Shown piece after piece: positions 8,450 through 31,188 of a stretch of DNA of 64,000 bases. The first letter of the stretch is position 1; the number at the start of each line of letters is the position of its first letter. The notes beneath the pieces are model-generated. The model saw only the letters and a list, made by a program, of their open reading frames with translations, ran no database searches and had not been told where the DNA came from. Both the position numbers and the translations under genes were made by a program. The stretch is from Tubulanus polymorphus (lineage: Eukaryota > Animalia > Nemertea), in contig NC_134031.1 in NCBI RefSeq assembly GCF_964204645.1, forward strand, positions 11,534,088 to 11,598,087, written 5' to 3'.

Positions 8450-8662
8450 TTGACAATTTTTTTATGTGTTGTGTATGTTGGTTGTTCTAACATAAATTCA
8501 TTTATATCTTTATATTTTTTGTGGGATTATCTTATCTAATTTATCTTGTTTTACTTGACGCCAGATATTTTTGTTAGAAGAATAAGCAACCGAACTCTCA
8601 GGGTTGTAATATAAATTTCTTAAATATTGTTCTTTAGTATTAGGAGTTTTTTTACCACCCAT
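8450..8662 (-). pseudogene. Polinton-type integrase, N-terminal fragment
   Basis: MGGKKTPNTKEQYLRNLYYNPESSVAYSS...FMLEQPTYTTHKK matches the YYxP...QxxYTLHK N-terminal signature of Polinton integrases; truncated before the DDE core. Confidence 0.75.
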
Positions 8663-8692
8663 TTATATATCCTTAATTTTAACTTTATATTT

Positions 8693-9957
8693 CTAATATT
8701 GAATACTATCTAATTGTGAATTTACAATATTTAATTGTGCGTCACATATAATATAAATGTGCATTCTGAAATTTTTGTCTCCTGTTTTCTTTGCCATGAA
8801 TAATTGTATTCCATCTTTAGTGTTCTGTAGTTTTTTCCCAGAACCATGTAATGAATTATCCTCTGTTGTTCTAAAATCTAACCATAACGCGTATTTATTA
8901 CCGGTATAATAATCACTTTGATTAATATTACAATTTTCAGATGATTTTACTTTTTCATTCATAAAATGTTTTCTAATTTCTGGCCATTGATCAATCATTC
9001 TCATTCCTTGACAAAATATTTTATTTGCTATTCCTTCGATAGTTATTTCTACTTTTGTTATTTTAGGATTATAATAATTATCTACCTTTATTGCGCCATT
9101 AGAATATGTTGCAATGGTAAAAAATATTAATATACCTTTAATAGATCTTCTTGAGAAGTTAATATTCTCATTAATTATTTCATCATTTGCATTAATAGTT
9201 ACAGTTTTATATTTATCAATATAATCATATAATAATGAAAATCCTTGATTGTATTGAGTTTGAATTGTGTTAGCAATATTTTCATTAGTTACTGTGTTAT
9301 ATTCTAAACATATATTCGATAATTTATAACCCATATCTTTAACAACGCTAGATAATACAATTTCATTTACAGGAGCAAATTTTATCTCAAATATAATATC
9401 TTCTTGAATTACATATTTATATAAAGGTGCATTATTATTTATCAATTCAAAGTCTAATGGAATTTTATATTTGCTTCCATAAATCTTTTTAATCAAATTA
9501 TCTACGTCATTAGTTACTACTGCATTATTGGCCTCAGATCTTAATTTATTTTGATTTTCTGATTGGATGCCTTGAAATATCATATTATTTCTATTTTCTT
9601 TAGTTAACCATAAATCTTTATAATGCATAAATAAATTATAATCATCTAATGAGAAAACTGTTTCTGGACCAATCTTGATAGTTAATTTTTTAATCAAATA
9701 TCTTCCAAGATTATCAACAACATAATTATTATTATTACCAGTTACTTTTATATCAGCTGATAAATAAATACTATTTGGAACATAAAAAGTATTTTGTGTT
9801 AATCTCGGGATTCTAACATATAAAGTTTCATCAGGATTAAAGTTTCATCAGGATTAATATTAGAAGGGTTATGAGTGATTATATGATGTGATCTTTCTGC
9901 TTTAATAGCATTAGATATTTTACGATTCTTAGAAGGATTGATATAACGCCCACTCAT
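8693..9957 (-). pseudogene. Putative major capsid protein (double jelly-roll), frameshifted
   Basis: 334-aa ORF plus upstream frame MSGRYINPSKNRK...HNPSNINPDETLYVRIP; joined (about 415 aa) if the 17-bp tandem duplication at 9821-9854 is removed. Size, beta-rich pattern and context fit an MCP; fold not verified. Confidence 0.65.
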
Positions 9958-10012
9958 TTATTTAACAAAAAAATTCATCATTAATTTTTTATCATGTTAA
10001 GTTGATATTTTT

Positions 10013-11442
10013 TTATATCATGTTTACTAACCCAAAAATAATTGCACTTACAACTGTAATTAAAAATATAATAATATGTTCAGCAGCAAAGTTAATAATG
10101 TTTCCTGCAGATTTCAATATAAAACCAACAATTGATGCAATAATTCCTGGTAAAGCTGCGGCAGATTTTTTAGATAGTTCCCATAAATAGTTTGCTAATT
10201 TTTTTAAACCATCTTTGACTTTATCTTGTATAGAATTATTATCATTCGGGGGATTATCCGGTTTATTGGGAGTAGGAGTAGATTTCAAAGAATTTGATAT
10301 TGCTAAACCAATTGTTGTAAATAACATAGTTACAGCTGTTAGAATTGAAAGAATTGTGATTCCTTCTAATTTAAATAATAATTTTATTCTATCTTTCAAT
10401 TATATTTCAGAATTATGTTTTATCAACAAATCTTTAAAAATAATTTTTAATCTATTAATATTATAATCATATGATTTTAATAATGATTTAATTTCTTCTT
10501 TTTGTAATTCTAAATTATCTTTTAAATTATTAATTTCTTTTTCTAAACGTAATTCTTTTTGCCTATATTCCATTTCATCAATTACTTGACGATCAAGATC
10601 AGACTTTAATTGTTCTATTTCTTTATTTTTATCAGTTAATTCTCTTTCTAAAGTTCTAATTTTAATATCTCTTATACTTTTATTATGCGCAATTTATCAG
10701 CTTCATTTCTTATACTAATAATTTCTCTAATTGCTTCATCAGAAAATATATTTAAATCTTCTAATTGTTGATCTGTTGCATCAATTAATCCATTCGGTAA
10801 AAGTTTTTCAATTGGAACTTTATTTGATTTAAGTTTACTAGTTTTGGAAGTTATATTCTGTTCAGAAGTTGTTTCTGTTTCTGATTTCTTTTTGATTATT
10901 TCAAATAATTCATTAATTCTTTGTTTAAATACGTCTATATCATTATCAGTTAATTCTTGTATTATAACATCAGTTATTATATTACTATTATTAATTCTTT
11001 TAATTCTATCTGGATCTAAATCACTCAAAGTTGATTTTGTTAATATTTTATTTTTATTGTTTTTATAAGTGATATCAATATAATAATCACCTTTCAAATG
11101 ATAATACCATTTACCATTATCTAAAAATTTTAATTGATCTGCTAAAGGTCCAACGTCTTCATCATTTATGTTAAGTTTAGAATTTTCAATTATACGTTCT
11201 AATTTAGGTATTTTTTTTAAGTTATCTAAATCTTGTTTTACTAAATCTGGGTCTAAATTTTCAGGATTTAATTGTGATTCTGCGTTTTTAATATAATCAG
11301 GTATATTTAAATTATTATTATGTCCTGGCTCATTACCGTCATTAAAACTTGTTTCACTAAAATCAGGTTGTTGTTCATCAGTTATGCCAGGTTCATCAAA
11401 ATTATCCATTCCAATATCTATTCCACCTCCTTCTACATCCAT
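10013..11442 (-). pseudogene. Viral coiled-coil protein with C-terminal hydrophobic/amphipathic helices, split by frameshifts
   Basis: ORFs 10672-11442 and 10013-10399 joined by coiled-coil-like sequence; GITILSILTAVTMLFTTIGLAI and AAALPGIIASIVGFIL segments; TAAATG start. Confidence 0.6.
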
Positions 11443-11459
11443 TTATATAATAAAGAAAT

Positions 11460-12784
11460 TAAAATTAAAAATATAATATTCCTCCTATAACAATTCCTAT
11501 ACAAGTTAAAGCTAATTTAGTATTTTCATGGAATTTATTATCATTATCAGTTTTAATTATTTCATGTTGAATATTATCAGTTTTAATATTTTCTGATGTA
11601 TTATAATCCGGTTTAGAATCATTATTTAATTCAATATTCTTAGTTTTAGTTTCTGTTGATTGAATGTGTTTTTTTAATTTTTTTCACCTTCCATTAATTT
11701 TGGAGCAGTAATAATCTTTTTATTCATATCATTTAATCCAAATGAATTATTTATTGTTGCAGTATTAATTAGATTATTGTAACCAATTATATTTCCCATC
11801 TTTAATACTAAATCATTAGAAATAATTAATAGATTAGGGCTTATACAATAATTTAGTCTTACATGAGATTTATCTAAATAATTTTGATATCTTACAATGT
11901 TTTCTGGAATCGATCTATTTTTATCATTATGAATTGAATCTTCAAATAATACTTTGAATTGTTTCTGCGCATCGAATGAAGTGTTATCATTTCCAATTAT
12001 TGTGGATCTTGTTTCAACTTGCGCACCTAAAATACATATCAAATAAGGTTCTAATAGATTGATTTATTCTTTGTATACCAGCTTTAGTAAAACCTTCACT
12101 ATTTTCTAAAATGAAATAAACCCAACCATTATTATTTTGTTGTTGTATATAATTATAATATTTTGGTAATTCATTCCAATTTAGTGTTCTTATATCAGAA
12201 TTTGTTATTATTTTTCCAAATTCTTTAGTACATAATATTCCTAATCCATCCATTGTACCAATTTTTGCTCTAAAATCTTTATTTGAATTAATATTAAATT
12301 CATTACATATTTTATAAAACTTAGAAAAATTAATATTATTATTCAATTCTTTAAAATATTTTGAACCTGGTAAAGGACATTCTAATTAATCTAATATTAA
12401 TTTTATTTGAAAATAAGTATGAAATCTAAAGAGTGATAACCTCAATGGTAAACTTGGTTTGTTTAAATGATCATTCCAACTAATTCCACATCCTGTTGTT
12501 GCGCAATAAACAGCAAAATTTAATTGGTTCTGCCAATACTTCATATTAGATTTTAATAACCATTGTTTTGCCTCATTTCAATTTTCAAAATTAATTGTAT
12601 ACACATGAAATATATTTTCCATCTTTACGTGAAAATGATTACTTTCAGTAACATAAATATATAAATTAATTAATGAATTTAAAACTTAATTTCTATATGA
12701 AATATCTTTATTAAAATCTATTGCTGGAATATTATATTTAATTGATTTATTATATTGGAAAGCTTTTGGAAAACTATCTACCAT
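11460..12784 (-). pseudogene. Conserved viral protein with C-terminal membrane anchor, disrupted
   Basis: MVDSFPKAF start, WQNQLNFAVYCATTGCG, GFTKAGIQRINQSIRT, ILGAQVETRS, terminal KLALTCIGIVIG; homologue at 53594-54983. Confidence 0.7.
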
Positions 12785-12800
12785 TTATATAATTTAAAAA

Positions 12801-13235
12801 CTAATAATTTATTAATTCTTTTAATAATTTATCTTGTTCTTCAACTGTTATATGACCATTTAAACTTATTATATAATCTAGTGTATTCTTTAATTTATTA
12901 ATTTCTTTTATATTAGTTTTAATTTTTTCTTTATTACTTTTTATATTTAATTTTGAACTTATACCAGTTAAAACACTTGAACTTAATCCTAGTACGCCAA
13001 TTGATATAGCTAAAGGTGTTAATGGACTGAATATTGCTAGAAATGTTATTACAGAACTAATTGTAACCGAACCACTAATAATAAAATAATATATAATTTT
13101 AGATTTTAAATATTTTTTCTTTTTAACTTTTAAATCATTTTCAAATTCTAATATTTGTTTTTCTAAATATGTTTTTAATTTAGTTTTATTTATATAATGA
13201 GGAATGATATCAATATTATCAACTTTATCTTCCAT
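12801..13235 (-). CDS. Viral two-TM membrane protein
   Basis: Intact 144-aa ORF, hydrophobic hairpin IIYYFIISGSVTISSVITFLAIFSPLTPLAISIGVLGLSS; TAAATG start; homologue at 53263-53576. Confidence 0.75.
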   Translation of the reverse strand: MEDKVDNIDIIPHYINKTKLKTYLEKQILEFENDLKVKKKKYLKSKIIYYFIISGSVTISSVITFLAIFSPLTPLAISIGVLGLSSSVLTGISSKLNIKSNKEKIKTNIKEINKLKNTLDYIISLNGHITVEEQDKLLKELINY

Positions 13236-13313
13236 TTATTTAGAAAAAAAATTACTAATTAGTAAACTTATAAGCAACAAATATAACAATAACAGTTCCA
13301 CCTAAAATCCATA

Positions 13314-13676
13314 TTATTTCATATTTCTGGTTTCTTTACTCGGGGTATAATAATCTGATAATTTAGGTTTGTATAGATGTAATTTTTCTTTAGTGGTTAC
13401 CGCGTTATATAAACTCATTGCATCATCAACTGATTGAAAATCTCTATGTGAAATCTTCTGATCATATAATTCCTTGTTAATATAATCCATATAGTTTTGC
13501 CTCTTTTCTCTGTATTCTTCTGCTGCTTTATTGTATTTTTCTAATGCTAAGTTATGTCTTTTTTGTTCTGTTAATGATCCATTTTCATCAATATGCTTAA
13601 ATAAATAACCACCACCAGTAAATGCTGAAGCGTTAACAATTGCAGATCCTATAATAGTTATAATTGCAGAAGCCAT
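13314..13676 (-). CDS. Viral small protein with N-terminal hydrophobic helix and coiled coil
   Basis: MASAIITIIGSAIVNASAFTGGGYLF...EQKRHNLALEK; TAAATG start; a hydrophobic tail in another frame (to about 13255) suggests a late frameshift. Confidence 0.75.
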   Translation of the reverse strand: MASAIITIIGSAIVNASAFTGGGYLFKHIDENGSLTEQKRHNLALEKYNKAAEEYREKRQNYMDYINKELYDQKISHRDFQSVDDAMSLYNAVTTKEKLHLYKPKLSDYYTPSKETRNMK

Positions 13677-13700
13677 TTATTTAGTCAAATAATTACGTAT

Positions 13701-13922
13701 TTATATGGGAGGAATATATTTTTGTTTTTCTAAATAATCAATTGTTAAATTAGATAAAGTAACTGCTAATGTTAATTTCAAGATATCATTTATATCAAAT
13801 CTATCAACATTAACACTTCCCATTTTAAATACGTTTTTTAATACCATTGAATAACCAACAGTTCCAACTGATAGTAAGGCTCCATTATATAAACCAGTTA
13901 TTATCCACTTATTATCACTCAT
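13701..13922 (-). CDS. Viral small hydrophobic protein
   Basis: 73-aa ORF, TAAATG start, two hydrophobic segments. Confidence 0.7.
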   Translation of the reverse strand: MSDNKWIITGLYNGALLSVGTVGYSMVLKNVFKMGSVNVDRFDINDILKLTLAVTLSNLTIDYLEKQKYIPPI

Positions 13923-13925
13923 TTA

Positions 13926-14279
13926 TTAATTAAAAAAATTACTATCTTCAAAATATTTAGTTAACTTATTTATGATTAAATCAACATTTATTTCATTACT
14001 AGTTTCATTTGTATATATTTCAATTATTATTTTTTTAATATCATCGATGATAAAATCTTCATCTAATTCATAAAATCTTAAAGATTCTCTAATTAAATTA
14101 GTAATCTTTTCTACATCTAGAGTTTCTTTATCTATTGTTGTTTCATACTCAAATGTTGTTTCATTAGAAAATGCAATATTTTTGATTTCTGTAATTACAT
14201 CATTAATGTTAAATTTCATTTCTTTCTCACGTTTAAAATCAAATCCAAAACATATACTCGGTCCAACAGTTATATTCAT
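13926..14279 (-). CDS. Viral hypothetical acidic protein
   Basis: 117-aa ORF, TAAATG start, packed between neighbours. Confidence 0.65.
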   Translation of the reverse strand: MNITVGPSICFGFDFKREKEMKFNINDVITEIKNIAFSNETTFEYETTIDKETLDVEKITNLIRESLRFYELDEDFIIDDIKKIIIEIYTNETSNEINVDLIINKLTKYFEDSNFFN

Positions 14280-14295
14280 TTATATAATGAAAAAA

Positions 14296-15117
14296 TTAAT
14301 CTCTACATCTTATAACTAATTCATAAATTACAGGGAAATTATTTAAATCAATTAAGTATCCATTGTGATTTCTTACTTCTAATTTGAAATTATTGAAATG
14401 TGGTATACAAGGTTTAAAATCACATTCAGCTAAATTATAATTTATTTGCCTTCCAAATTGTTTAACATTCTTCAATGGTAAAATATTTAATATACTAGAA
14501 TTACAAATTGTATCTTTATTTGCTTCAAATGTTTTTGTAGGATCAATTAAATTGCAATAAATATAAAAATGTGTAAAAGGTATTAAATTTGATATACCGT
14601 ATATGTTTCCTACAATAATTTTAACTGGATGAATTCCTAACAGTTTAGCAAAAGGTTTTTTTACCAAGTAAGCATGTTTTCTTGAAGGTAAAATAGTACC
14701 AATAAGATTTTCATCATCAAACTTTATTTTAATTTTATTAGAGCTCTCACTTTTTATGAATTTAATATTAAATTTAGAATCACTACCTAATATAATCCGA
14801 GCTTTTCTATTAATTTCTTGCTCTAATGTTTCTAAATTATAAAATCCTGGTGTAAGCATAAGATGAATCCAGTCATGTATAATTTTATCATAATTAAAAA
14901 AGGTTCTATGTTCATTAGTTTTATCTGATACATTATAAAAAGAGTAACATAAACTTATATTAACTAATTTTAAATCAAAACAATTCTTAAATTCTCTATC
15001 TAATTGTATTAGTAAATTATGTGATTTATAATTTGTAAGTTTTCTAGAATCAACAAATATTCTGTATTCTTTTAATTCTACCATTATTTGTAACATAAAA
15101 AAATTACCGCTCATCAC
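14296..15117 (-). CDS. Putative minor capsid protein (penton, single jelly-roll)
   Basis: IFVDSR N-terminus, PGFYN, AKLLGI, FYIYCNLID and C-terminal FKLEVRNHNGYLIDLNNFPVIYELVI, a pattern typical of Polinton/virophage pentons; likely true start at 15084. Confidence 0.7.
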   Translation of the reverse strand: MMSGNFFMLQIMVELKEYRIFVDSRKLTNYKSHNLLIQLDREFKNCFDLKLVNISLCYSFYNVSDKTNEHRTFFNYDKIIHDWIHLMLTPGFYNLETLEQEINRKARIILGSDSKFNIKFIKSESSNKIKIKFDDENLIGTILPSRKHAYLVKKPFAKLLGIHPVKIIVGNIYGISNLIPFTHFYIYCNLIDPTKTFEANKDTICNSSILNILPLKNVKQFGRQINYNLAECDFKPCIPHFNNFKLEVRNHNGYLIDLNNFPVIYELVIRCRD

Positions 15118-15153
15118 TAAAAATTAATTTTGATAAAAATTTTTCCTTAATAA

Positions 15154-16489
15154 ATGGATGAGAAGATACCATGCGAAATTTGTGGTGAACTTCTAAGAAA
15201 AAAGTAATATGGCTCGACATATGAAAAAACATGATGAAAATTATGAACCCCCTAAAATAAACTGCCCAAAATGTAATAAATTATTCTCAAGAAATTATGT
15301 TAAAAAATATTCAGAGAAGTGTAAAATTAATGGCGCAACGGCTAATGTTGATAGTAACGAAAGTAATTGTAATTCTGTTGAAGTTGAACCAGAAATTATT
15401 TGGAAAAGACCTTTCTTATTCTATGACAAGGATAATATAAAAGATCATATCTGCGAGCCTTGTCGAAAAAAATATAACCCTGAAAATATAGAAGATTGGG
15501 AGAATCATCAATTTCGTAAAGTACATATAGATAAAATTGCTAATAAATTTGAAGCAGAATTCAATGAAAGAAAAAATAGTTTATTAGAAAAAATAAAATA
15601 TGTGAAAACGTTACCAGATAATAAAGAAACAGTTGAAAAGTTAGAAAAACAATATAATGAATTAACAAGAAAAACATATTATTGTAAATATTGTAAATTG
15701 ATTATTACAACAAGTAATTCAAATCTACATAATAGAACAATAAAACATAAAGAAAACGTAAGAAAATACCAGGAGCTTAATGAAGATCTATTACCAATAA
15801 ATTATAAACAAAAATGACCACAATGTAATTATGCGACCTTAAGGCAAGAAGGTACTGTGTTATTTTGTAATGAATGTGGATGGCAAAAGAATTTATGGGG
15901 TGAAGAAAAAACTTTTTTGAGAGATTTTCTCATAGAACCAAAATTAAATTATCTAGATGAAATTTTTAAAATATTTTCTATAGAAGATCATACACCAGAA
16001 TATATGCAATGGCTTGAAAAAATGAAAATGATAGAAAATAAAAATGGTGAAATAACTAAAAAAGATATAATAAAAACAATTATTCCATCAACATTTAACA
16101 CAAAACAAAAGAAAATGTATTTATATTTATTATTTAATGATTATTATGAAAAACCTAAATTAACAGAAGAAGATATGGAAAATATAAAAAAAACATTCAA
16201 ACAAATATTAATGTATCATTTGGAAAATAGAATAACAGATTCAATTAATTATGAATTATTTTTAGATAAGATTGTAAATTATTTAAACATCGATATTATA
16301 ATTCTATTTGACGAATTAACAAACAAAAAGAAACAAAGAGAGCGATATGAAATGTGGTACAAGATAGAACTTTATTTAAATGAGAAAAATGAAATGGAAG
16401 AACCTAAACAAATTATACAAGAACAATTAAATGAAAATGAAGAAGCCAATAGTGATTTCGAGTATGATGATATTGATTTTATGTTTTAA
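15154..16489 (+). pseudogene. C2H2 zinc-finger / Zn-ribbon / VLTF3-like late transcription factor fusion
   Basis: ORFs 15209-15817 and 15857-16489 are in frame, split by one TGA that replaces the first Cys of CPQC...CNECG. C-terminus PKLTEE...FKQI...INYELFLDKI...LTNKKK...MWYKI follows the VLTF3 pattern; a 1-nt insertion near 15200 separates the TAAATG start. Confidence 0.6.
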
Positions 16490-19400
16490 TGGCCATAAGG
16501 TAATGTTTTTATACCATCATCAAAAATATGCCTTTTATCATCAAATGGATTCAAACTAGTTTTTTCAACTTCATTAATGTACATCTCGTGATTTTCTGAT
16601 CAATTCATTTTATGTTTCATTACAATTGAGTTATATTAACACTTTATATAATCTTGAAATTCTATATGTTTATCAACCACATGTTTTCTTATTCCTTTTA
16701 ACTTTTTAGCTTCATGATCTTTTGTTCTATAACTATACATTTTACTTCTTATCTCAACAAATTCAATCATTTCATCACCCCCTAATTCATCTTTAAATTT
16801 ACCAGGAATCTTTTTATTATCATTGCTAAATAGTTCATGATCTTTGGGATAATTGCTAAAATCAAAATGATGTTTTAATGTTTTTAAGTCTTTTGTTATG
16901 TCATTTGTCTTGATTTTTAGTATGTAACTGTCAGTATTTTTTGCAATTAATGGAAATCCACAGTTAAATGTACCATCTTCAGTTGATAAATCATAAACAT
17001 AATCTGATGGTTTATATATTTCAAATAAATCTTTAACTTCTTCTGTTAATTCTTTTTCTACATGCCTTAAATTAAAACAATTTGGTTTAGATTTAATTAA
17101 TTCTATATTCATATTAAATCCTAATGAACTGCATAATATATTTAATCCTGATATAGCAACTTTCCTTTCTGTGCGAAGGTTATCTTTTTATCCTTTGTAA
17201 ATTTTTTATTTTAGTGCCATCTGCGGCATAGAATCCAATGAAGAACCACTTTCTTAAATTATTTTTTGCATTTAATACATAATCTGGTACTATCTTTTCT
17301 TTTGTTGAAGTATTACTTTTCACTATTGCATGAATATAGAATTCATCATTATATTTTATAGCAAAATCTTTAGGATTATTTACAAGTATTCTATAAACTG
17401 CTGATGATTTCATAACATCTATGATTTTAAATATTTTATGAGAATAAACTTATTCACAGAATTTCTTAATTCTTTCTAATAATTTCAAATCTTGATTGCA
17501 TAAATACCAACAATATTTATTACCCCAAACATAATTATACACACCTGCTGAACCATCACCCATGAAAAATCCTTTGATAAAATATTCTTTTTCTTCTAAT
17601 GTTTCAGGTTCTATATTATAAATATTATCAATAATTTCATCAAATGATATATGATTCATTCTTTGGAAAAATCTTTTATGTAATAATTCATCTCCAATTT
17701 TTATATCAGTTGGTTTTATTTCATAGCCATTTCGTTTAATTAAACTATGATCTTCTGTAACATCTACAAACCCTAATTTAGTTCTAACTCTATAGATTTT
17801 CTTATTTGTTTTATGTCTAATAATATTCTTTAATTTTATCCATCCATTTCTTGTCCAAACATCCATTAATTCATTTATTTGTATTAATTCTTTTTCATCA
17901 TATGAAATATAACATTCATTTTGTTTTGGAATTATTTCTGAAATTCTTCTTATCAATATTTTATCATTACATTTTAATAATATTGGGGTGTCAGCTGTTA
18001 CAGAATCAAAATATAATATTTCAATATGCTTTTCCCCAAAAAGTGGTTGTAAAACATTATAATAAAAATCAAACATTGATAATTTTGATACTTCTAAAAC
18101 AGTTGAACCAATGAATATAGGTTTATTAAATTTCATTGACGTTCTTTTTAATTTAACTGCTGTTAAATAATCTTCAAATCTTTCCTAAATGTCTAGGACT
18201 TGATTGTAAATGTCTTAATCGTTCAGAATTATTTACTAATTCAATATCATTTCTATTTCTAATATTTTCGCATGTTTTACCATAAAAACTATTATTCATT
18301 AATTTGAAGAAATCTTTTTCAAAATCTGGTTTTGATATGGTTCTCTGTTGAGTATTGAAATCTATATATTTTTCTAACCACTTCGATTGATTAAATTCAA
18401 TATATCTATGTACTTTCTTTAATTTCATTCCTTGTTTTAGATAAAATTTATATTCTATAATAAACAATATAATTGTATTTATTATTTTGAGTAAGTATTA
18501 ATTTTTCTGTAAAAACATGATCTTTCGGTTTTATTTTCTTCTGGTATTCACTTAAATAACTATCATCTACAGTTAAATGTTCTGGGCATTAAGGTAAGTT
18601 TCTTGTTTTAAACTTTATATTTTCAGGATATTCTAAATCAACTACAAAGAAATAACCAATTGGTGCTTCATCTTCTAAACTCATAATTGCGCTTTCCCAA
18701 TTAGTTTTATCATCATTTTCAACTTCTGTTAATATAAAATTTCTATATGGTTGGGGTTGCATCATTGCCCAGCCATATAAATTATTGGCGTCAATATATA
18801 ATAATTTATATTCATCATTTGCTTTAAAATATCTATCTCCCATAACACCACTAATTCCACCTCTAATTGATTTTTCAAATAATAAAACCATATCTGGTTC
18901 TTTTAATAAATCTAATTCTACATTTGTATATTTTAAACCACATTGCCAGGTTAAACCAGGACTAGAGTAGCAATAACAACGATCAACATTAAAATGATTC
19001 AAATTAACTTCTCTAAATTTTTCAAATATGTCAGCCAATATCATAACATCTGATTTTAAATATAAATCAACTAATTCACCATGATTTTTCATCTTAAAAT
19101 GGTTCCAAATATTTAATGTTCTATTAAACACTTCATCTTTCACATACTCCTCTTTTAATTGATCATAAAATTGATCTTTTAATAATTCTGTTACATTAAA
19201 ATCATTGTGTGTTTTATAAAATGAATAAGGAATTGCGCCTTTATATCTCAATAATTTAAAATCTTGTTCATTGGATAATAATATCGAGTTATAACAAAAT
19301 CATTATCAACTAAACTTTTTGATAAATTATCTAATGAACTTGCTAGAAATCTATAAGAATCTAAAAATCTAATGCAACCAAATTGAAATGAAATATAATT

Positions 19401-21511
19401 TTCAGATGTTTTAGGTAATAGTTTAAAATCATATTTTCTTACATTTACGTCATTCATAGCATTATATTCTTCTATTTCTTGATTAATTGCGCCCAATTTT
19501 CCCGATAATTGTTTTGTAAATAGATGGGTATCATAGCCTGATAAATTATGAAATAATATTGGTACGAAATTAACTTTCTTAGCTTGTAAATTGCAATCTT
19601 CTTGAGCAGCTCCACGATATTTTGAATTTAAATGATCATGATCTCTAACTTTTTTATCAAATGAATAAAAACGTTTTTCACAATAACAACAATGAGTTGC
19701 ATAATTAAAATCAATTTCATCTTTTGTCATAACTATTCTTTTATTTTTTGTTTAATAATTTTGCAAAATCACTTTCTAATTCAATCATTTTGTCACAAAA
19801 ATCATTAACTACATTTTCACCTCTAAAAGAAATATATTAACTTTCATATAATTCGGGATAATTTGATTTGATGTAAATTCCATAAGCAGCAGCTCTTTGA
19901 TGAACTTAATTGTATTTATAATTGGTGGGTCTTGAATTATATCTTCATTTAGTTCATTTCCTTTATCCATTGATTTTAATAATTGCTGTTTGTTATATAT
20001 TTCTTTTCTCTCTTGATCAGTTGGAGTTACAAATGGAACAATATTTTTAAATTTATGATTAGTAAATTTCAATTTATAATCTTTTTCTGTTGGCATTATT
20101 AATTTACAAAAATCTTTATTATCACATAATTCTTTATGTTTCAGTAAAGCATTCTCACATCTAAATTTAGATAAATATTTTCTACATAGATAAATTTTAT
20201 TATGGTGATCACTTTCTGTTCTAATGAATAAATCAATTTGTTTTAACCACATATAATGTTCATTTTCATCTTTTTTGTAATATAACAAATCTATAGCATT
20301 TTCATCATCATAATATTCTGTTAAATATAAAGCTTCCAGTGTATAATCTTTAATATTTTCACCTTTTGTCTTTGGTAATTGCATTAATTCGAATACATTT
20401 ATTTTTAAATTATTAATTTTTTCTATTTTGGGTATCATTTTTATAGTTACTGGATATTGATCAATTTTATATAATGTTTCATATTTCCGGTATTTTGTTA
20501 TTCTAAAACTATGTGTTATATCTTCTGTTGGGTGTAAGCAACTAATAATTGACCGTAGAAAACATTTATTATCTTCATTTTGAATATTTATTACTGCTTT
20601 TGTTGTAAATGGTAATTTAATATAAGATGATGCTTTAATATCCTCCTTTTCTGTTGTAAAGTTTGAATCATTTTTAAACATTTTATTACTTTTTGATGTT
20701 TTATTTCTTTTTGTATTATAAACATTTAAATCTAAAAATATAATTTCATTCAATGTTAAGCCAGAACCCTCAAAATATCTTTCTTCAATATGACGTTTAA
20801 ATTCATTAAATATTTTTTCTAATTTCTCTTTTATTTGTGTTTTTGAAATTATTTCTTCAGAGAGTGTTTGAATATTATAATCCATTTTATCTTCTGACTT
20901 TAAAAAACTTACTTTCCCAGAGATACTAATTTTTGGATATTCAACATTGTTATCAAATCTAGTATTTTTTCTATTATTTCATTAAATTTACTATAATCTT
21001 CTATTGTTGTACCTTTAAAAAATCTAAATATAATAGCTGCAGGACCAATTTAACTACGTAATGTTTCTAATATTTCAATTGTATCTTTTATTTCTAGTGA
21101 ATCAATATAATTTCTAACATTTTCCATGTAAGGTTTATTTGAAATGGATTTAGTTTTGGAAGTTGGTTTTTTTACTTTTTGAGGTTTATCATCGAAATAA
21201 TCTTTTCCTAAAACATTATTACTCAAATTTTGATGGTGTTTTTGTGATTCGAGATGTCTATTATAATTCCTTTTTGTTATAAATTCATCACAAACTTCAC
21301 ATTTTATTTCATCCACATTCATATCATCTAATCGTTCTTTTCTTTCATTTGTATTATCTAGTGTTTCAAAATCTATTACATTTTTTATATGATTTGCAGT
21401 TTTTTCATGTCGTGATTTTTGGGATTTATCGATGTATTTTTTACAATATTGGCAATAATATTGATTTTTATTAACATTATTATTTTCTGGCTGGTGTTCA
21501 TTCTCCCCCAT
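16486..21511 (-). pseudogene. polB: Protein-primed family B DNA polymerase with intein, multiply disrupted
   Basis: FHNLSGYD and YLKSDV (exonuclease), YIDANNLYGWAM (A), KLMNNSFYGK (B), YFD/TDS (C), PGKFKDE, RSKMYS, C-terminal FDDKR...TLPYGH*; N-terminal Zn fingers, OTU-like NEDNKCF...HY and EndoVII-like VRDHDH. Confidence 0.95.
16936..18004 (-). mobile_element. Intein with LAGLIDADG homing endonuclease in PolB motif C (about 357 aa reconstructed)
   Basis: Block A SVTADTPILL, block B VDVTEDHSL, endonuclease blocks IKGFFMGDGS and FIGFYAADGT, blocks F/G YVYDLSTEDGTF...LIAKN, then TDS; removal restores YFDTDS. One stop and apparently two 1-nt frameshifts. Confidence 0.95.
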
Positions 21512-21595
21512 TTATTAGGAAAAAAAATTACTTGTGGTGATGAGTGGTGTCTCGACCTTCGACCTCTGGTATGAAACAACACATTTCCTATTACT

Positions 21596-21980
21596 GTTGT
21601 ATATGTTGGTTGTTCTAACATAAAATCATTTATATCTTTATATTTAACTACATTTTGTGGGATTATCTTATCTAATTTATCTTGTTTTACTTGACGCTAT
21701 ATATTTTTGGTAGAAGAATAAGCAACCGAACTCTCAGGGTTATAATATAAATTTCTTAAATATTGTTCTTTAGCATTTCTAGTTTTTTATCCCCCATTTA
21801 TATATCGTTAATTTTAACTTTATATTTTTAATATTGAACACTATGTAATTGATAATTTATGATATTTAATTGCGCATCAGATATAAGATAAATGTGCATT
21901 TTGAAATTTAAACTTTCTTTTTCCTTTTTCATGAATAATTGTATTCCATCTTTTGTATTTTGTAGTTTTTCCCCAGAACC
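21596..21980 (-). mobile_element. Virus copy B fragment: MCP C-terminus plus integrase N-terminus
   Basis: Diverged direct duplicate of 8468-8846. Confidence 0.85.
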
Positions 21981-22059
21981 AATATATTAAAAAATTTCTT
22001 TAACTGTTTTTGGATCTAATACAATAAATTTATTATTTCTATCATAATAGAAATATTAC

Positions 22060-22485
22060 TAGAAATAATAAATTTATTGTATTAGATCCTGAAACAGTTA
22101 AAGAAAATTTAGATAATTGTATAAAAATAGCAATTGATATTTATAAAGGATCAAATACATTATTTGTAATAGAAGATTGTGCACATTTACATGATTCAAA
22201 AATTAGAAAGAGTGAAGTATGTTATTTAGCTTTCTCTGGAAGACATTTGGGATAACGTGGGTTTTAAATCAAAAATATAATTCAATTGTTAAAGATTTTA
22301 GAGAAAACATTTGATTTTTAGTATTATTCTACAAGAAAGATAGAAAATCGATGAAAAATGCGCTTGAGGAAAATGATATTATTCCACATGATTTACATAA
22401 TGAATATATGGATAAATTGAAAAATAACAAAAGATCAAAATTACTATTTCGATTACAACACCCATTTGAATATGAATTCATTTAA
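22060..22485 (+). pseudogene. A32-like (FtsK/HerA) DNA packaging ATPase, C-terminal half
   Basis: Hand translation: TLFVIEDCA (Walker B), LAFSGRHLGI, WVLNQKY, DFRENI; Walker A half missing; frameshift and stop. Confidence 0.8.
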
Positions 22486-22688
22486 ACTCAACTAGCTGGT
22501 TAATCTAGTATATTTTAGTCACATTCTAGTCAAATCTTAGTTATTCGTAGTTGAAACAAAAATCAAATAAATTTCAACAAGAAATAAATAAAAACAATAA
22601 TATTTCGACTAGCATGTTAATCTAGTATATTTTTAGTTACATTCTAGTTAAATTCTAGTTGCAACAACACAATTTTTTTGTTTTATAA

Positions 22689-23238
22689 ATGGGAGGTGAA
22701 AAGAAAGGAAAATCTAAAAATAGTGATGTTCCAATTGAAAAAACTTTGGATGATTAATATAGGTATAACAGAAACAAAATTAACACCAGATAATAATGGT
22801 GCTTTAAATGATATTACTACAAACAATAATTATGAATATTATCTTTATTGTAAACATCAATTAGAAATATTTATAGCATCTGGGAAATGTAAAAGTTTTA
22901 TTAGCAAAAATTTAACTTATAATGAATAAGATGCAATGAAATCAGATGAAATTATTAAATTATTTAAGATTTATGAAACTGCGAGAATAGCTAGAATTAA
23001 TGATGCGATATCAGAAAATGTATTAAAAGGTTATAGTAAATTATGTAAATACATGCTACCAATTCAAGATGAAAATAGATTATATTCCGATTTAGAAAAT
23101 GATTATTTAGTTATGACTGAATTTAATGAATGGATTGGATATTCATCATTTCAATTAGGTGGATTTATGACATTATCAACTGGAGTTATGACATTTTCAA
23201 ATATTGAAAGTAAAATTTTTTCTATAATAAATGAGTGA
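22689..23238 (+). pseudogene. Viral hypothetical protein, disrupted
   Basis: TAAATG start at 22689; ORFs 22678-22929 and 22936-23238 are in frame across one stop. Confidence 0.55.
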
Positions 23239-23599
23239 AGTGGAAGAGGTGAAAGGATTAACTGTAAAGAAAAAACCGAGATCACAGAAACATATTGAAT
23301 GGTCTCGGCAATTAGGAATTAAATCGAGAGAATTTAAAAAAGCTATAAAAGAAAAAATAAATAATGAAAATGTTAATAATAATGGTGAAAATATTTTTAT
23401 TTCTACTCCTTCTGATAATAGAATATATGATAAATATTTATATTTTACAACTGGATTTGTAATTGTATTCATTTTGATTGGGTGTAGTTGGTATAAAAAA
23501 TCAAATAATATTTATGTTATTAATAATTCTGAAACAACTACTATCAAAAATGAAAATACTTCTGAAATTCCAAAATCCACAATAAAAGAAATGGATTAA
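23231..23599 (+). CDS. Viral single-TM protein
   Basis: 122-aa ORF, TAAATG start, TM segment YLYFTTGFVIVFILIGCSWY. Confidence 0.7.
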   Translation: MSEVEEVKGLTVKKKPRSQKHIEWSRQLGIKSREFKKAIKEKINNENVNNNGENIFISTPSDNRIYDKYLYFTTGFVIVFILIGCSWYKKSNNIYVINNSETTTIKNENTSEIPKSTIKEMD

Positions 23600-23747
23600 T
23601 ATTTTAGAAAAACAGCAAAAAAATAATTTCATTGATTCTAATTGAATATCTCACTACTTTTGTCTGTCTATGCGGAGCAATTAAATTGTCCAGATAAGTC
23701 ATTTCGGATTCTCAATATTTAATCAATTTTATTATCAATTTATTTTT

Positions 23748-24073
23748 TTAACCAACAACTTCTAAATCATGATGCCCGTCTTCATTTTTCCCATGGTAAA
23801 TTATTTTAAATCCTTTAAATCTTTTAATTCCTCTGTACTCAATGAAACCTATTTATCAGGTAAAAATACTTTAAATTCCCGCGTTGTACTAACATTACAG
23901 TAAGTTAAATTTGCTGATACTTTCTCTCCATGTTTAGTTTTTATCTTTTCTAATTTTGATATTTTGTGTTCAATTTCATTTGTAACATCGACTAACTTTT
24001 TTATTTCAAATTGTTTTTTTGCTGGTTTTATTCTGTTATTTACTGTTGCTAAGAATGCTTTTCTATTTCCCAT
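23748..24073 (-). pseudogene. Small viral protein, possibly OB-fold ssDNA-binding, next to a terminus ending about 24160
   Basis: TAAATG start; TKHGEKVSANL...FKVFLPDK, continues past one stop; upstream 24070-24160 resembles 21508-21595. Confidence 0.4.
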
Positions 24074-24163
24074 TTATTATGGGAAAAAATTACTTGTGGT
24101 GATGAGTGGTGTGTCGTTCTCTCGTTCTCTGATCTGAACCCAAAATTTCCTAATTACTACGCT

Positions 24164-24482
24164 TGTGAATGACGATTTGATGAATGGGTAACTCTGGATA
24201 GGATTACAGTCCTCTCTCTCGCATTATCGCTCGCTGTGTGCTCAGAGTTTGTGAGCTGAACCTGTTTGTATTGTATTTTGCATTTCTAAACTCTATGAAC
24301 TTGTACAGTCTTTATTCTGAATCTCTCTTCTAGCACTATTTCTGTGCACCCCGCTATCCCCTCCGATTTGTATCTAAACCATGTACTTGTAAATACATTT
24401 ATTCCGAATAAAACCACGGTAAAAGGCAGATAGTCGTTGTCTTCATATTCTGGGACCTATTGTTGGCCGTCTTTACCCAACA
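24164..24482 (+). repeat. 5' LTR (319 bp)
   Basis: TGTGAATGACGATTTGATGAATGGGTAA repeated at 31240; contains AATAAA; ends in CA before the PBS. Confidence 0.9.
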
Positions 24483-24485
24483 TTT

Positions 24486-24503: not shown

Positions 24504-24521
24504 GCTAGATGACGGACAACG

Positions 24522-27500
24522 ATGTCTGATGATAACGCGAAACAGATACAGCCGTCTTCGAGCCTGTCGTCAAAGTTAGAGCACCTACGTCGAGCTTGCG
24601 GGCTAAAAAAGGAGCTCTGACTCGTCTTTGTACTCAGGCTACAACATTGATCGCTGCCCGTGGAAGCCGGAGTCAATTGAAAAAACTGCTTTCGGCAGTT
24701 AGTACAGCATATAACGACGTCGTTTTTACCGTGAATGACGAATATACAAGTTTACTGCACACAGATGCCGAAACTCAAGAAGCAGCTGCCTATGTCACTG
24801 AGGTAGAGAAAAGGCACAGTGACACGTCGAACGCGATATTAGGCTACTTGCAGTGTCGAATTAATGATTCTGCGTCTCAAGCGTCATCTGCATCATCGAC
24901 TGCATCTCTAGCCGCAGAGGTCAACGCCAAGGTCAAGCTACTGAAGGTCACGCAACTGCAAAGACGCTTAGAAATTGAACATAGGAAAGAAGCAGCGTTG
25001 AAACACCAACGGATCCTACAGGAAGCGTAAGACGAAGCCGATGTTGCGGTCCTGAAAGCAAAGTTGATGAGCGAAGCTGACGAACTCGAGCGAGAACGAA
25101 AACACGATTTTGATGATGAATTGGTTCCTGACCTGCAAGAGTTTACACAGCCTCAACCGACACTCCCAGATCCGCCAGTGAATCGGCAGCCTCCACCACT
25201 GCTGCCAGACGACTATTGATACCGATTACCACAACCTCAGTCACCAAGACGTCCGCCGAGATCTTCGTTTACGAAGTCGCTACCGAAAATTAAGTTACCG
25301 ATTTTTAATGGTGATGCTGCAGAATGGCCACGATGGGAATCACTCTTTGAAGCATTGGTCCATAGTCAACCGGACCTGAATAACGTTGAGAAGATGACAC
25401 ACTTGCAGTCAGCAGTCACTGGTCCGCCTCAACAGTTGATTTCCGGTATGATGTTTGATGGAAGCCAGTATGATGATGCTTTGAATTCATTAAGAAATCG
25501 TTATGGAAAGGAAGACGACATCGTACGTGCTTGCCTAAAAAAGGTGTTTAGTCATCCGTCACCTAGAATACATGACGTCTCGTCACTCGAAGATTTCCAA
25601 GGTGTGGTAAATTCTACAGTCGTCACGCTGAAGAGCCTAAATTTCATGGAAGATTTTCGCAGCTCAGAGAATCTGCATCGAGTTATAATGAAGCTGCCCT
25701 TAGAGATCAGACGTGAATGGGGAAAACAAGCCGTAGAAATCGAATCCAAGAAGGAACGACCGACTTTACTCCACTTGAATGAATGGTTGGTGTTGCAACT
25801 CCGAGTATCCTTAAACTACTGTGAAGCAACGAAGTCTGTAGATGATCGTCAATCCAGAGATAGCAAGCAACATAGCAAGCCGAGTACATCCAAACCGAGA
25901 TCTGTCTTCTCTACTAACGTCAAGGCTGATGATGAGTGTATCCGCTGTAAAAGTAAACATCCCCTAGCAGAGTGTGACGATTTCAAGAAAAACCTTCCAG
26001 ACGTTAGAGCGCAGCTGGTTGCAGATAATGGACATTGTTTCTCATACCTCTCCAGGGGACACAGATCGCACCACTGCTTGTCAAAGAAATCATGTGGCAT
26101 AGACAACTGTCAGATGTAGCATCACAAGTTACTACATGGAAGCAAGAGAATATACCCTAAGACCACAGTTAAAGCGAAGACTACAGATTATTCGTCACAA
26201 GAGCGCACCGTCACCTTAACTAGAAGACCTACGGCCAATGATGAAGTGTTGTTGCAGGTGGTACCGATTCGAGTGTATGGTAATGGTGAACGATTCTTCG
26301 ATACTTTCGCTATATTAGATCCAGGGTCCCAAACGTCGCTGTGCTGTCGGGAGATAACAGATCGATTAGATGTTTCTGGCGAAGAAAGGACGCTGACGCT
26401 CAATACGATTAATGGTCCAAGTTCGCCGAAAACTGGAATGCTTGTTCAACTCGATGTCGTCCCGCTCTCAGCTAGTTCCGTTCGAAAGAAGATCAAGGTC
26501 GACGAAGCATGGTCCGTGGATGGATTGAAGATTCCACTCAGCCTTACCCGATTGAAATCCAGATTGAATTGGTGTCACGTAGAAGATATAGACATATCTG
26601 TTCCTGGTCATGGTGATGTTCAAGTCCTGTTAGGTGCTAACGTCATTGAAGCGGTTATTCAACATGAAACTAGGATTGGTAGACCTAACCAGCCCATAGC
26701 CGTTCGGACAGATTTTGGTTGGTCACCGACCGGGAGAGCTGGTAATTTCTCTTCATTGGAAGATACGATTCCACGTGTCTACTTTTCCTGGGATGCCACA
26801 CACGAAAATCAACAACTGTCTTCATTGGTTAAAGATTGGTGGCAAACTGAGTCGTTTGGTGTCAAGAACCTGGTACGTGAAAGTCAATCTACCGAAGATG
26901 TCCGAGCAGTTCAGATGTTAGAAGCTAATACTCGATTGGTCAATGGTCACTACGAGACTGGTTTGCTCTGGAAAGATGATGATATTCAACTGCCATGCAA
27001 CCGTTTAAGTGCGATGAAGCGTCTGAAGAATACAGAATGTACCTTAAAGAAGGATCCTGTCAGGGCTGCCGCCTATGCCAAAACGTTCGACGATTACGTT
27101 GAGAAAGGATATTCTCGAAAACTGAGTGAGACTGAAGCTAATCAGCCGAGTCCGAAGAAATGGTACCTTCCACACCATGCCGTTTTTAATCCAAACAAGA
27201 AGAAGATACGAGTGGTCTTTGACGCTGCCGCCTGCTACTCAGGAGTATCACTCAACAACCAGCTGATTTCAGGCCCCAATCTACTTCAAAGCCTGCCTGG
27301 GGTTCTTCTGCGTTTCGGTCAAGAACAAGTAGCTGTGATTGCTGACGTAGAAGCTATGTATCATCAAGTGCGGATAGCAGAAATGGATCAACCAGCATTA
27401 CGTTACTTCTGGAGGAATCTAGAAGACCGTCCACCAGACATCTACCAGATGCTGGTCAACATTTTCGCCGCCCGATGTTCCGCGTCTATCGCTAATTATG

Positions 27501-30500: not shown

Positions 30501-31188
30501 AATTTGAAGTCCGGAGAAAACGAGCTGCGCCAAGCTTTACGCAAATTTAACCATCAACATATCGAAGATGACATGTCTCAAAAGATGATCCAGTAGTACT
30601 TCAACCCTCCCGCCGCCAGCCACATGGCCGGCGTTTGGGAGCGTCTCGTCTCTTCAATCAAAAGATGCTTGAAGATCGTTATCGGTAAACAGATACTTGC
30701 TGATGAAGTCCGCCATACACTATTCGTTGAAGTTGAAGCTGTTTTAAACTCAAGACCGATTACTCATGTCAGCAGTGACAGTGGTGTTCCGTCAGCACTT
30801 ACACCCGCTCACTTCTTACTGGGAAGAGCAATACCAAACCTATCTACAGGAGTCTACACTGATGTCGACGTGTCGTACCAGCGCAGATGGAAGCAGACTC
30901 AAACGCTAGCAAACCACTTTTGGAGCCGTTGGAGAAAGGAATACGTCCCAACCCTCATTGCCAGACCAAAATGGGATCGCGAAGGTAGAAACATTTGACG
31001 ATGTAGTGTTAATAGTTGATCAAGATGTACCGCGTGGTATGTGGAAGATAGGCCAAGTTATTCGTGCGTTTCCTGGCCGTGATGATGTCGTCAGATCCGC
31101 AGAAATCAAAACTGGTTCGGGAACTTACGTGTGCCCAGTAGCCAAACTATGTGTGCTGGAAGAAGCCAAAACGCTTAAAATGAACTGA
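24522..31188 (+). pseudogene. BEL/Pao gag-pol polyprotein (gag, protease, RT, RNase H, integrase)
   Basis: DUF1759-like gag, Cys/His knuckles, FAILDPGS, YMDD, HLFCDAS, GIDYFGP, YSDNGTN, GVWERLV; several stops plus an insertion at 28130-29169. Confidence 0.95.
28130..29169. mobile_element. Non-autonomous DNA transposon, EnSpm/CMC-like
   Basis: TIR CCCAGCTA...TAGCTGGG, subterminal AACGTT repeats, 2-bp TT TSD; removal restores CDASTKAFGAVAY. Confidence 0.85.

Follow-up and report, generated by a model that had tools for sequence, protein, structure and literature searches.

A decayed LAGLIDADG intein at motif C of a protein-primed DNA polymerase pseudogene, probably inherited with an endogenous Polinton-like virus of Tubulanus polymorphus

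Boundaries and sequence blocks of the intein

The DNA analysed here (the window) is a stretch of 64,000 nucleotides from the nemertean Tubulanus polymorphus (NCBI RefSeq assembly GCF_964204645.1, contig NC_134031.1, positions 11,534,088 to 11,598,087 of the forward strand). On its minus strand, at 16489..21511, tblastn and Pfam locate a pseudogene of a protein-primed DNA polymerase of family B (PolB) that has a U1-type zinc finger at its N-terminus and a CxxC..DHDH region resembling Endonuclease VII, inside an AT-rich copy of a Polinton-like virus. Within this pseudogene lies a decayed intein, made up of a Hint splicing domain and an inserted LAGLIDADG endonuclease domain (16936..18004, minus strand; 1069 bases, i.e., 356 codons plus one base). 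An intein between these two positions had been proposed from the letters of the window alone (in the following, the sequence-only reading), and both ends were found to be exact in the minus-strand translation and in the open reading frame (ORF) at 16636-17187. The first intein codon is 18002-18004, where the translation runs ...GEKHIEILYFD|SVTADTPILL..., and the last is 16936-16938, where ORF 16636-17187 reads ...YVYDLSTEDGTFNCGFPLIAKN|TDSYILKIK.... On the minus strand of 16636-18184 the junction between N-extein and intein is translated as ...FGEKHIEILYFD|SVTADTPILLKCND... and, past a TAA and a frame change, the junction between the intein end and the C-extein as ...DYVYDLSTEDGTFNCGFPLIAKN|TDSYILKIKTNDITKDL....

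By translation and flank comparison, the N-extein ends with YFD, the first half of PolB motif C (18005..18013, minus strand), and the C-extein resumes with TDS, the second half (16927..16935, minus strand), whose Thr is the putative +1 nucleophile. All blocks of the intein are read on the minus strand. Block A, SVTADTPILL, with Ser1 as the putative N-terminal nucleophile, was assigned by translation to 17975..18004, and block B, VDVTEDHSL, which holds the TxxH motif (VTEDH), by alignment to 17741..17767. Translation and alignment place the first LAGLIDADG motif, YFIKGFFMGDGS (KGFFMGDGS), at 17549..17584 and the second, WFFIGFYAADGTK (IGFYAADGT), at 17210..17248. Blocks F and G, which read DYVYDLSTEDGTFNCGFPLIAKN with a terminal Asn and a penultimate Lys, cover 16936..17004 according to translation and relatives, and the C-terminal junction is ...PLIAKN|TDS, i.e., the terminal Asn followed by Thr+1. 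When the window intein was aligned with 12 giant-virus inteins, S1, V2 and P7 were invariant (S1 in 13/13), as were V80, V82, T83, E84, D85, H86, S87 and L88 in all 13 rows, and D81 almost. The marks of a class-1 intein are therefore present: Ser1, TxxH, and the terminal Asn with Thr at +1.

The start with Ser, the end with Lys-Asn before Thr and the two LAGLIDADG-like blocks, all named by the sequence-only reading, can be seen directly in translation and alignment. It had also pointed to the missing penultimate His. Lys indeed takes this place, but it is no oddity: the inteins of mimivirus and of the protein-primed PolB P0299 also end in KN, that of P0012 in SN and those of P0023, P0293 and P0294 in HN (these relatives are described below). 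The inteins of the relatives end in VHN, VKN or ISN, always directly before TDS. A penultimate His is common in class-1 inteins, not universal.

The reading frame is broken inside and outside the intein. An in-frame TAA, evident from the ORF list and the translation, lies within the endonuclease domain at 17450..17452 (minus strand), where the sequence-only reading had put it; the several frameshifts it had placed near 17160-17210 reduce to a single net shift in the zone 17164..17191 (minus strand, tblastn), as the P0012 tblastn piece in frame -1 ends at 17192 and the one in frame -2 begins at 17163. Over the whole pseudogene the tblastn pieces of P0004 and P0012 fall in frames -1, -3, -2, -3, -1 and -2, which makes five frame changes, one inside the intein and four in the extein. 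In-frame stops include 17450-17452 and 18589-18591. An alternative code with TGA/TAA as sense, suggested by a TGA that joins the plus-strand ORFs 15197-15817 and 15818-16489, was considered for these breaks and rejected, because frame changes make up five of them. As the intein has a stop and a frameshift and the extein a further four frame changes, the gene in the window is dead, and neither splicing nor homing should start from this locus.

Homology, profiles and fold

To place the intein, its first 274 residues, with the stop written as X, were compared by phmmer with 1.84 billion representatives. There were 1923 matches at E<=1e-3, of which 1082 reached E<=1e-10 and 129 even E<=1e-30, with 1.2e-62 as the lowest E; as far as sequence comparison goes, the likeness to inteins is far beyond chance. 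The profile check suggested by the sequence-only reading had a mixed outcome. The Pfam Intein_splicing (Hint) match of the window reaches 22.7 bits and stays under the curated cut-off of 35.8, whereas the intact relative P0023 is above the cut-offs (in brackets) for Intein_splicing with 37.7 (35.8), Hom_end with 31.1 (21.1) and LAGLIDADG_3 with 24.8 (22.5) bits, and P0012 and P0294 clear the LAGLIDADG_3 cut-off. In the extein one piece matches Pfam DNA_pol_B_2 at 1.2e-11 (44.6 bits, cut-off 25.8) and two more reach 24.8 and 23.9 bits; Endonuclease_7 and zf-U1 are matched as well. Together with the blocks and the homology, the extein matches uphold the view of a full-size LAGLIDADG intein in a protein-primed PolB.

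In the PDB the best sequence match is PI-PkoII (E 0.0033), along with a polymerase mini-intein of 173 residues (E 0.0035). The first 274 residues were modelled with AlphaFold2 from an alignment of 13 rows; the mean predicted local distance difference test (pLDDT) value is 70, with 85-95 over residues 131-220. Foldseek ranks the endonuclease-bearing inteins TliVMA (7qsu), PI-PkoII (2cw7) and PI-PfuI (1dq3) first, followed by I-DmoI (TMt 0.41-0.49) and PI-SceI. The global template modelling (TM) scores are low (0.3-0.37 on the query), as expected for a truncated, two-domain model, and the fold is therefore taken as supporting evidence only. Motifs and model together agree with a LAGLIDADG homing endonuclease domain, which is marked by two motifs with acidic residues in an alpha-beta-beta-alpha-beta-beta-alpha fold.

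Relatives of the intein

A scan of IMG/VR with the window intein yielded 37 loci, many of them on contigs labelled as giant-virus metagenome-assembled genomes (MAGs); the best shows 43% identity over 268 residues (E 3e-56). For 30 loci the match begins directly behind ..GD, with the junction ..GD|S.. (27 times ..YGD|S.., three times ..VGD|S..), and the other seven were matched from inside the intein. Likewise, the top 150 representatives mostly read ..YGD|SV... Identity to giant-virus inteins reaches 45% over at least 268 residues, and IRHKTNKKIY and V.VTEDHSL are invariant in both the window intein and those of giant viruses. The proposed homology to Ser-initiated motif-C inteins of giant viruses, of which that of mimivirus is 37.5% identical, thus holds.

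Classing of the exteins of 256 fetched proteins by BLAST gave 232 RNA-primed PolBs, six protein-primed PolBs and 18 unclassed proteins, which are mostly fragments; P0299, unclassed by BLAST, has Pfam DNA_pol_B_2 at 9e-32. The intein-bearing protein-primed PolBs found are P0012 (1693 residues, on a 12,969-base contig), P0023 (1537 residues, from a 136-member cluster with contigs up to ~1 Mb), P0293, P0294 and P0299, and P0300/L079, P0106 and P0083 are partial or broken cases. With X written at its two breaks, the window intein is 61% identical to that of P0012, 47% to P0023, 46% to P0299 and 41% to P0293 and P0294; the nearest inteins tested from RNA-primed PolBs, mimivirus included, reach 36-37.5%. 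Classical archaeal pol-c inteins, i.e., those at the same motif-C site of archaeal PolBs, are only 24-29% identical to it. Two MAG contigs from GTDB, L140 and L141 (labelled Promethearchaeota and 'uncultured archaeon'), carry PolB pol-c inteins that are 38-40% identical to that of the window, have the junctions ..VLYGD|SVTGDTPLLL..HN|TDS and group in the tree with eukaryotic-virus inteins.

Among protein-primed PolBs the intein is sporadic. A scan of IMG/VR with a single extein piece gave no pattern match, and one with an extein alignment gave 22 loci of 27-39% identity; a metagenome scan with P0012 gave 597 pattern matches of which none was confirmed, and a second metagenome scan with an alignment gave 80 loci. 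One of these 102 related loci from IMG/VR and metagenomes, some of which stop short of motif C, contains the intein (L079). The copy in L079 (3070-4089) is a full-length version of the same intein, 48% identical to that of P0012, with two in-frame stops, and is a second decayed copy from unrelated data.

The cluster of P0023 at 90% identity contains members with and without the intein. Among the 15 of 136 members listed, seven of 1537-1539 residues have it, with the junctions ...HCHYMD|S...VHN|TDSFVLSV..., and three of 1191-1193 residues, which read ...QCQYFDTDAMVLSI..., do not. The exteins of the two kinds are 97-98% identical over 1191 residues, and the residues flanking the site differ. A homing cycle in which the empty sites have altered flanks would agree with this pattern. 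The Atlas leads for contigs of this cluster are weak (Arthropoda or Mollusca, scores 0.83-0.84).

Precision of the insertion

With the extein piece 18589-19299 as query and longer proteins only, 6236 of 6926 candidates were relatives at E<=0.001. The closest were P0001 (79% identical) and P0002-P0004 (69-72%), and P0135 is 82% identical to the window extein over the columns kept for the extein tree. These five proteins read ...GEKHIEIMYFDTDSYILK... with no insert between D and T. More generally, intein-free relatives with exteins 70-82% identical run ungapped through ...IEIMYFD-TDSYILK..., and judged by them, taking the insert out restores a contiguous conserved polymerase. This bears out the insertion point exactly at YFD|TDS given by the sequence-only reading. 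In L064, the closest intein-free contig, 31 of 36 bases flanking the site match the window, and 17 of the central 18.

The 18 central flanking bases of the window have 11-17 positions in common with six intein-free protein-primed PolB sites and 9-14 with ten giant-virus sites. Because the flanks match at only 9-14 of 18 positions at giant-virus sites, direct cross-recognition between polymerase sites by the endonuclease is not obvious. The part of Ogata et al. (2005; PMC549080) drawn on here contains a similar remark on cross-recognition for mimivirus and archaea.

In four intein-free protein-primed PolBs (P0130, P0131, P0133 and P0136/L062) the empty site is ..D-TDA.. and not ..D-TDS.., and the residues next to it are unlike those of their intein-bearing near-twins. 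Such sites may be due to co-conversion, or may be sites that escape the endonuclease.

Trees of intein and extein

A tree of 96 inteins, 89 from RNA-primed PolBs, six from protein-primed PolBs including the window and one from a topoisomerase II, was computed in a quick IQ-TREE search under LG+C20 with posterior mean site frequencies (PMSF). The six inteins of protein-primed PolBs form one clan with 100 in the Shimodaira-Hasegawa-like approximate likelihood ratio test (SH-aLRT) and a stem of 0.61. A second tree of 68 inteins was rooted on six archaeal pol-c inteins from GTDB genomes; here the clan has a support of 99 and is nested among eukaryotic-virus inteins, behind four starred branches. 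Across both trees its stem amounts to 0.5-0.6 changes per column. From these sequence trees we regard it as solid that the inteins of protein-primed PolBs are one lineage, and equally that homology links this lineage to the pol-c inteins of the equivalent site.

When the clan was held with the archaeal outgroup, the constrained tree was not rejected in the approximately unbiased (AU) test (p 0.5) and was even 0.44 log-likelihood units better. A jump from RNA-primed to protein-primed PolBs is accordingly only favoured, on the grounds of more than 1000 inteins against a handful and of the free tree; a wording by which the direction was shown has been dropped, as the AU test does not reject the un-nested alternative.

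The extein tree contains 41 protein-primed PolBs, 12 of them with intein. On it, intein presence needs at least four changes, and both P0135, the sister of the window extein, and the nearest neighbours of P0012 are without intein. The branching order is broadly alike in the intein and extein trees: the window with P0012, then P0023, then P0293/P0294. An exception is P0299, which has an extein end branch of 7.9 and an intein near the window and P0012; as a long-branch case it was given no weight.

From the motif-C site it shares with giant viruses, the sequence-only reading had concluded that the intein jumped between polymerase subfamilies, in a compartment shared with the donor virus, unless it grouped with a Polinton intein clade rather than with giant-virus inteins. 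The trees divide this proposal. A transfer is retained, since the kin of the lineage are the giant-virus inteins at YGD|TDS, but it was not made at this locus: the window intein groups first with the clade of protein-primed PolBs (SH-aLRT 100 and 99 in the two trees, closest member 61% identical), and giant-virus inteins are its nearest kin outside this clade. Because the clade with which it groups first lies entirely in protein-primed PolBs, the subfamily jump would predate the window copy, and an old transfer between the subfamilies is thus supported by the sequence comparisons.

The element and the surrounding DNA

In the composition profile of the window a block of 21-25% guanine plus cytosine (GC) at ~8.5-24.1 kb stands out from DNA of 30-48% GC. 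Composition and end sequences delimit in it a copy of a Polinton-like virus of ~13.1 kb and 23% GC (8467..21554, minus strand; GC 0.21-0.25), which bears the PolB pseudogene. It is followed by a second, rearranged fragment of the same element kind (21595..24116), which comprises the capsid gene's 3' end, an inverted repeat of 51 nt, fragments of a packaging ATPase and, again, the end sequence. Each end of the 13.1-kb copy is found a second time at 85-96% identity (8467-8846 in 21595-21981, and 21507-21554 in 24069-24116), 13.1 kb and 2.6 kb away, so that a full copy and a rearranged fragment follow each other head to tail with 40 bases between them. The ends, which are rich in GT on the same strand, do not form inverted repeats. 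The two arms of the 51-nt inverted repeat (21991-22041 and 22060-22110) are 94% complementary and lie exactly where the capsid fragment meets the ATPase fragments of the opposite strand, which looks like a rearrangement joint.

A capsid-like ORF at 8693..9844 (minus strand) has a weak match to Pfam Capsid_N (E 0.004) and is 37% identical to an ORF of the metagenome contig L073 whose neighbours are a Pox_A32 ATPase and a protein-primed PolB. The ATPase of the element exists as fragments only, with 31-35% homology to the Pox_A32 gene of L073 (7e-13). Among 33 ORFs scanned from three AT-rich patches there was no Pfam match to an integrase (RVE) or a Ulp1 protease, terminal inverted repeats were looked for in the element and not found, and a PHROGs search with 14 element ORFs gave no matches. 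As no integrase, protease or terminal inverted repeats were found, we call the element Polinton-like and not a classical Polinton.

The right end of the element is adjoined by the genes of a BEL/Pao long terminal repeat (LTR) retrotransposon (25220..30596, plus strand; Pfam DUF1759 6e-23, Peptidase_A17 3e-19 and 7e-18, and Integrase_H2C2). BEL/Pao elements are not known outside Metazoa. For the BEL/Pao polymerase, the closest Atlas clusters carry the label 'Eukaryota, commonest Arthropoda' with scores of 0.90-0.96, which is a lead only. The surrounding DNA is most likely that of the animal, as the sequence-only reading had assumed. That the element is integrated is suggested by the assembly, by several interspersed fragments and by the decay of the copy.

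All 30 bins of 8000-24600 are covered by X7, an independent Illumina run of whole-genome DNA that bears the same species label. It contains 50,721 reads of at least 90% likeness to this region, of which 1,311 are at >=99%, 18,454 at 95-99% and 30,956 at 90-95%; this spread indicates many diverged copies of the element family in the species. The summed depth is 143 and 221 in the intein bins, 243 and 235 in the adjoining PolB bins and 291-312 deeper in the gene, and therefore many copies carry the intein. At two of the extein frame changes the majority of X7 reads are longer or shorter than the window sequence, so at least some of the breaks are private to the window copy. Contig pieces of two other runs, X1 and X2, bridge 18004|18005 (X1 records 5 and 6, X2 record 14) and 16935|16936 (X1 record 3). 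None of the 15 joints listed out of 171 skips 16936-18004, which proves nothing either way. In run X6, which has a second organism label, a 201-base piece lies inside the intein with eight differences, and pieces of other element genes occur as well; the pieces in this run are 92-96% alike.

Origin of the intein at this locus

We consider it likely (about three chances in four) that the window holds a decayed Hint and LAGLIDADG intein in the protein-primed PolB pseudogene of an endogenous Polinton-like virus, and that the intein was inherited from the virus lineage and not gained in the chromosome. From this we infer a gain before integration. In intact relatives, established class-1 intein behaviour would predict the following course. 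The intein would be translated within the polymerase precursor, Ser1 would undergo an N-O acyl shift, and the N-extein would be handed to Thr+1; the terminal Asn would then cyclise, by which the intein is freed and the catalytic YFDTDS motif restored. Where two virus genomes meet in one cell, the predicted targets of the LAGLIDADG domain are polymerase genes without the intein, which it would cleave at the DNA encoding YFD|TDS, and repair after the cut would copy the intein in. The intein line would belong to the 'pol-c' family that fills the YGD|TDS site in RNA-primed PolBs of giant viruses and archaea, and would likely have made a single ancient move between polymerase subfamilies, followed by repeated spread and loss among protein-primed PolBs.

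Several points weigh against this account. The direction of the subfamily transfer is left unsettled by the AU test, and the trees are quick searches with SH-aLRT values as their support. The Hint match of the window itself is sub-threshold in Pfam, and its penultimate residue is Lys, not His, a feature that by sequence is common to the mimivirus intein. The gain before integration is deduced from clade membership and from the sporadic spread in free metagenome contigs, not from the other copies in the genome; the near-twins with and without intein in the P0023 cluster, on contigs of up to 1 Mb, would fit homing after integration.

The last point leads to the explanation that survives best after the preferred one, although we consider it rather unlikely: the intein could have entered the window copy after endogenization, by homing between chromosomal copies in the host nucleus, a possibility raised by the sequence-only reading. 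In its favour is the multi-copy nature of the element family seen in the X7 reads, and as the depth of the intein bins is 59-94% of that of the adjoining PolB bins, many copies carry the intein, perhaps not all. The 1537-residue and 1191-residue members of the P0023 cluster, with their differing flanks, would fit such homing. However, the window has one PolB copy, the intein and extein trees pair the closest relatives roughly alike, as vertical descent in a virus lineage predicts, and intein-bearing relatives also occur on short free contigs of metagenome type, such as that of P0012.

Much less probable is that the AT-rich block is contaminant virus or symbiont DNA misassembled onto animal DNA. 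Relatives 64-100% identical to P0004 and of the same 21-23% GC do occur on short metagenome contigs. However, three separate AT-rich patches of the same family lie amid DNA of 35-45% GC in the 64-kb window, the BEL/Pao retrotransposon abuts the right end, the copy has fossil-like frameshifts and stops, and X7 covers every bin.

We give slightly less credit still to the possibility, which takes the sequence-only reading literally, that the intein came into this element directly and recently, from a giant virus that infected the same cell. The insertion site is the same, and the identity to giant-virus inteins and the two invariant segments described above are what it would predict. However, the window intein is closer to those of P0012 and four further protein-primed PolBs (61% and 41-47%) than to the nearest ones tested from RNA-primed PolBs, mimivirus included (36-37.5%), and the six inteins form one strongly supported clan on a long stem. 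Least probable of all is a nuclease domain without protein splicing, for which endonuclease domains recorded in Polinton protein-primed PolBs (Jeong et al., 2023; PMC10748475, in the part drawn on here) and the sub-threshold Hint match would speak, as the insert contains block A, block B and blocks F and G together with all three nucleophile positions, intact relatives reach the curated Intein_splicing score, and an unspliced polymerase would be inactive because the insert splits the catalytic DTD motif.

Comparison with known systems and significance

In the part of their paper considered here, Ogata, Raoult and Claverie (2005; PMC549080) describe the mimivirus PolB intein as having Ser1, a terminal Asn and Thr+1 at YGD/TDS and name it the 'pol-c allele'. 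Like this and other giant-virus pol-c inteins, the window intein lies in motif C with D on one side and T on the other (YGD|TDS in the viruses, YFD|TDS here), and it shares with that of mimivirus Ser1, the terminal Lys-Asn, Thr+1, a full-size LAGLIDADG domain and the 37.5% identity over the whole intein. In contrast to mimivirus, the extein is a protein-primed PolB (DNA_pol_B_2) and not an RNA-primed one (DNA_pol_B with exo1), the intein is a member of a distinct clan confined to protein-primed PolBs, and the copy is a pseudogene. Archaeal pol-c inteins, such as PI-PkoII (2cw7) and those of Methanocaldococcus and Thermococcus PolB, occupy the same site with junctions ..Y[GA]D|S...HN|TD[SG], in agreement with what the sequence-only reading had stated of archaea. 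PI-PkoII matches in sequence and fold, but as a group the classical archaeal inteins are far more distant from the window intein than those of giant viruses.

Jeong et al. (2023; PMC10748475) report HNH and VSR domains in Polinton pPolB2, animals included; the part of the text used here does not contain the word 'intein'. Citing this work, Koonin et al. (2024; PMC11161782, again in part) regard the homing-endonuclease domains of Polinton PolBs as likely relics of intein invasions. The window intein resembles them as a mobile-nuclease-type insertion within the protein-primed PolB of a Polinton-like element. However, HNH and VSR domains lie at other positions and no Hint domain is described for them, whereas here Hint lobes and LAGLIDADG motifs are found at the catalytic motif. 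The element itself resembles Polintons/Mavericks and Polinton-like viruses in its protein-primed PolB with a fused N-terminal region, its capsid-like gene, its A32-type ATPase fragments and its several copies integrated in a eukaryotic genome. With ~13 kb and a very AT-rich sequence it is smaller than a classical Polinton and closer to a Polinton-like virus.

Searches of full-text literature, with subscription papers outside their scope, yielded no account of a protein-primed PolB that carries a Hint-LAGLIDADG intein. One protist Polinton polymerase is said to contain an intein, reportedly noted by Kapitonov and Jurka in 2006. The 2018 survey of eukaryotic inteins has '--' and 0 for Metazoa in its tables, which agrees with the statement of the sequence-only reading that inteins are essentially unknown from animal nuclear genes.

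The pol-c family, previously known from RNA-primed PolBs of archaea and giant viruses, thus extends to the homologous motif of a protein-primed PolB, and with it in both subfamilies one homing site would be used across polymerases that diverged very long ago. The crossing would indicate that, at some time in the past, small Polinton-like viruses resided physically together with giant viruses or relatives of these. Intein DNA is moreover present in animal genome assemblies as cargo of endogenous viruses, which qualifies the textbook statement that there is none in metazoan genomes; an intein in an animal gene would be the greater surprise, since the gene that carries this one is viral and dead. 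Such inteins can confuse gene calling for these polymerases. The window intein should interest researchers on inteins and on small eukaryotic DNA viruses, and the pairs with 97-98% extein identity with and without intein provide suitable material for studies of the homing cycle in mobile elements of eukaryotes.

Gene starts and further fragments of the element family

At the starts of intact-looking genes of the element the conserved motif GTAATTTTT-N4-14-TAAATG occurs four times, where 0.04 matches are expected (13233-13255, 13920-13942, 21509-21531 and 24071-24093, all on the minus strand). TAAATG is also present at other ORF starts in 8467-24116, 47082-47291 and 53594-53914; in total it stands at 10 of 31 first-ATG ORF starts (background 7%) and at 11 of 13 in the metagenome relatives L060-L064. 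A run of T followed by TAAATG over the start codon resembles poxvirus late promoters. This hints at a dependence on a cytoplasmic giant virus. A promoter motif shared with the intein donor was considered and dropped, as TAAATG occurs in 26 of 171 ORFs of giant-virus intein loci against a background of ~5%, a mild excess that gives no link to these particular viruses.

Because the element genes start in this poxvirus-late-like motif, one may speculate that the small virus was a virophage-like satellite of a cytoplasmic giant virus, whose shared factory was the site of the crossing from an RNA-primed to a protein-primed PolB, and that intact members of the clade, carried in animal chromosomes as cargo of multi-copy endogenous Polinton-like viruses, still splice and home from copy to copy in the germ line. 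We regard this combination as a long shot; if true, these would be the first working inteins of a metazoan nuclear genome.

Further AT-rich fragments of the same family lie at 47082-48116 (minus strand) and 53594-55867 (plus strand), with, e.g., homologues of the ORFs at 10672-12577. They are without PolB and stand between DNA of 35-39% GC with long ORFs that have no Pfam match. Next to the PolB pseudogene, a zinc-finger gene on the plus strand (zf-U1 3.6e-07) is formed by two ORFs, 15197-15817 and 15818-16489, with a single in-frame TGA at 15815-17 between them, and homologues of the two halves adjoin each other on L064.

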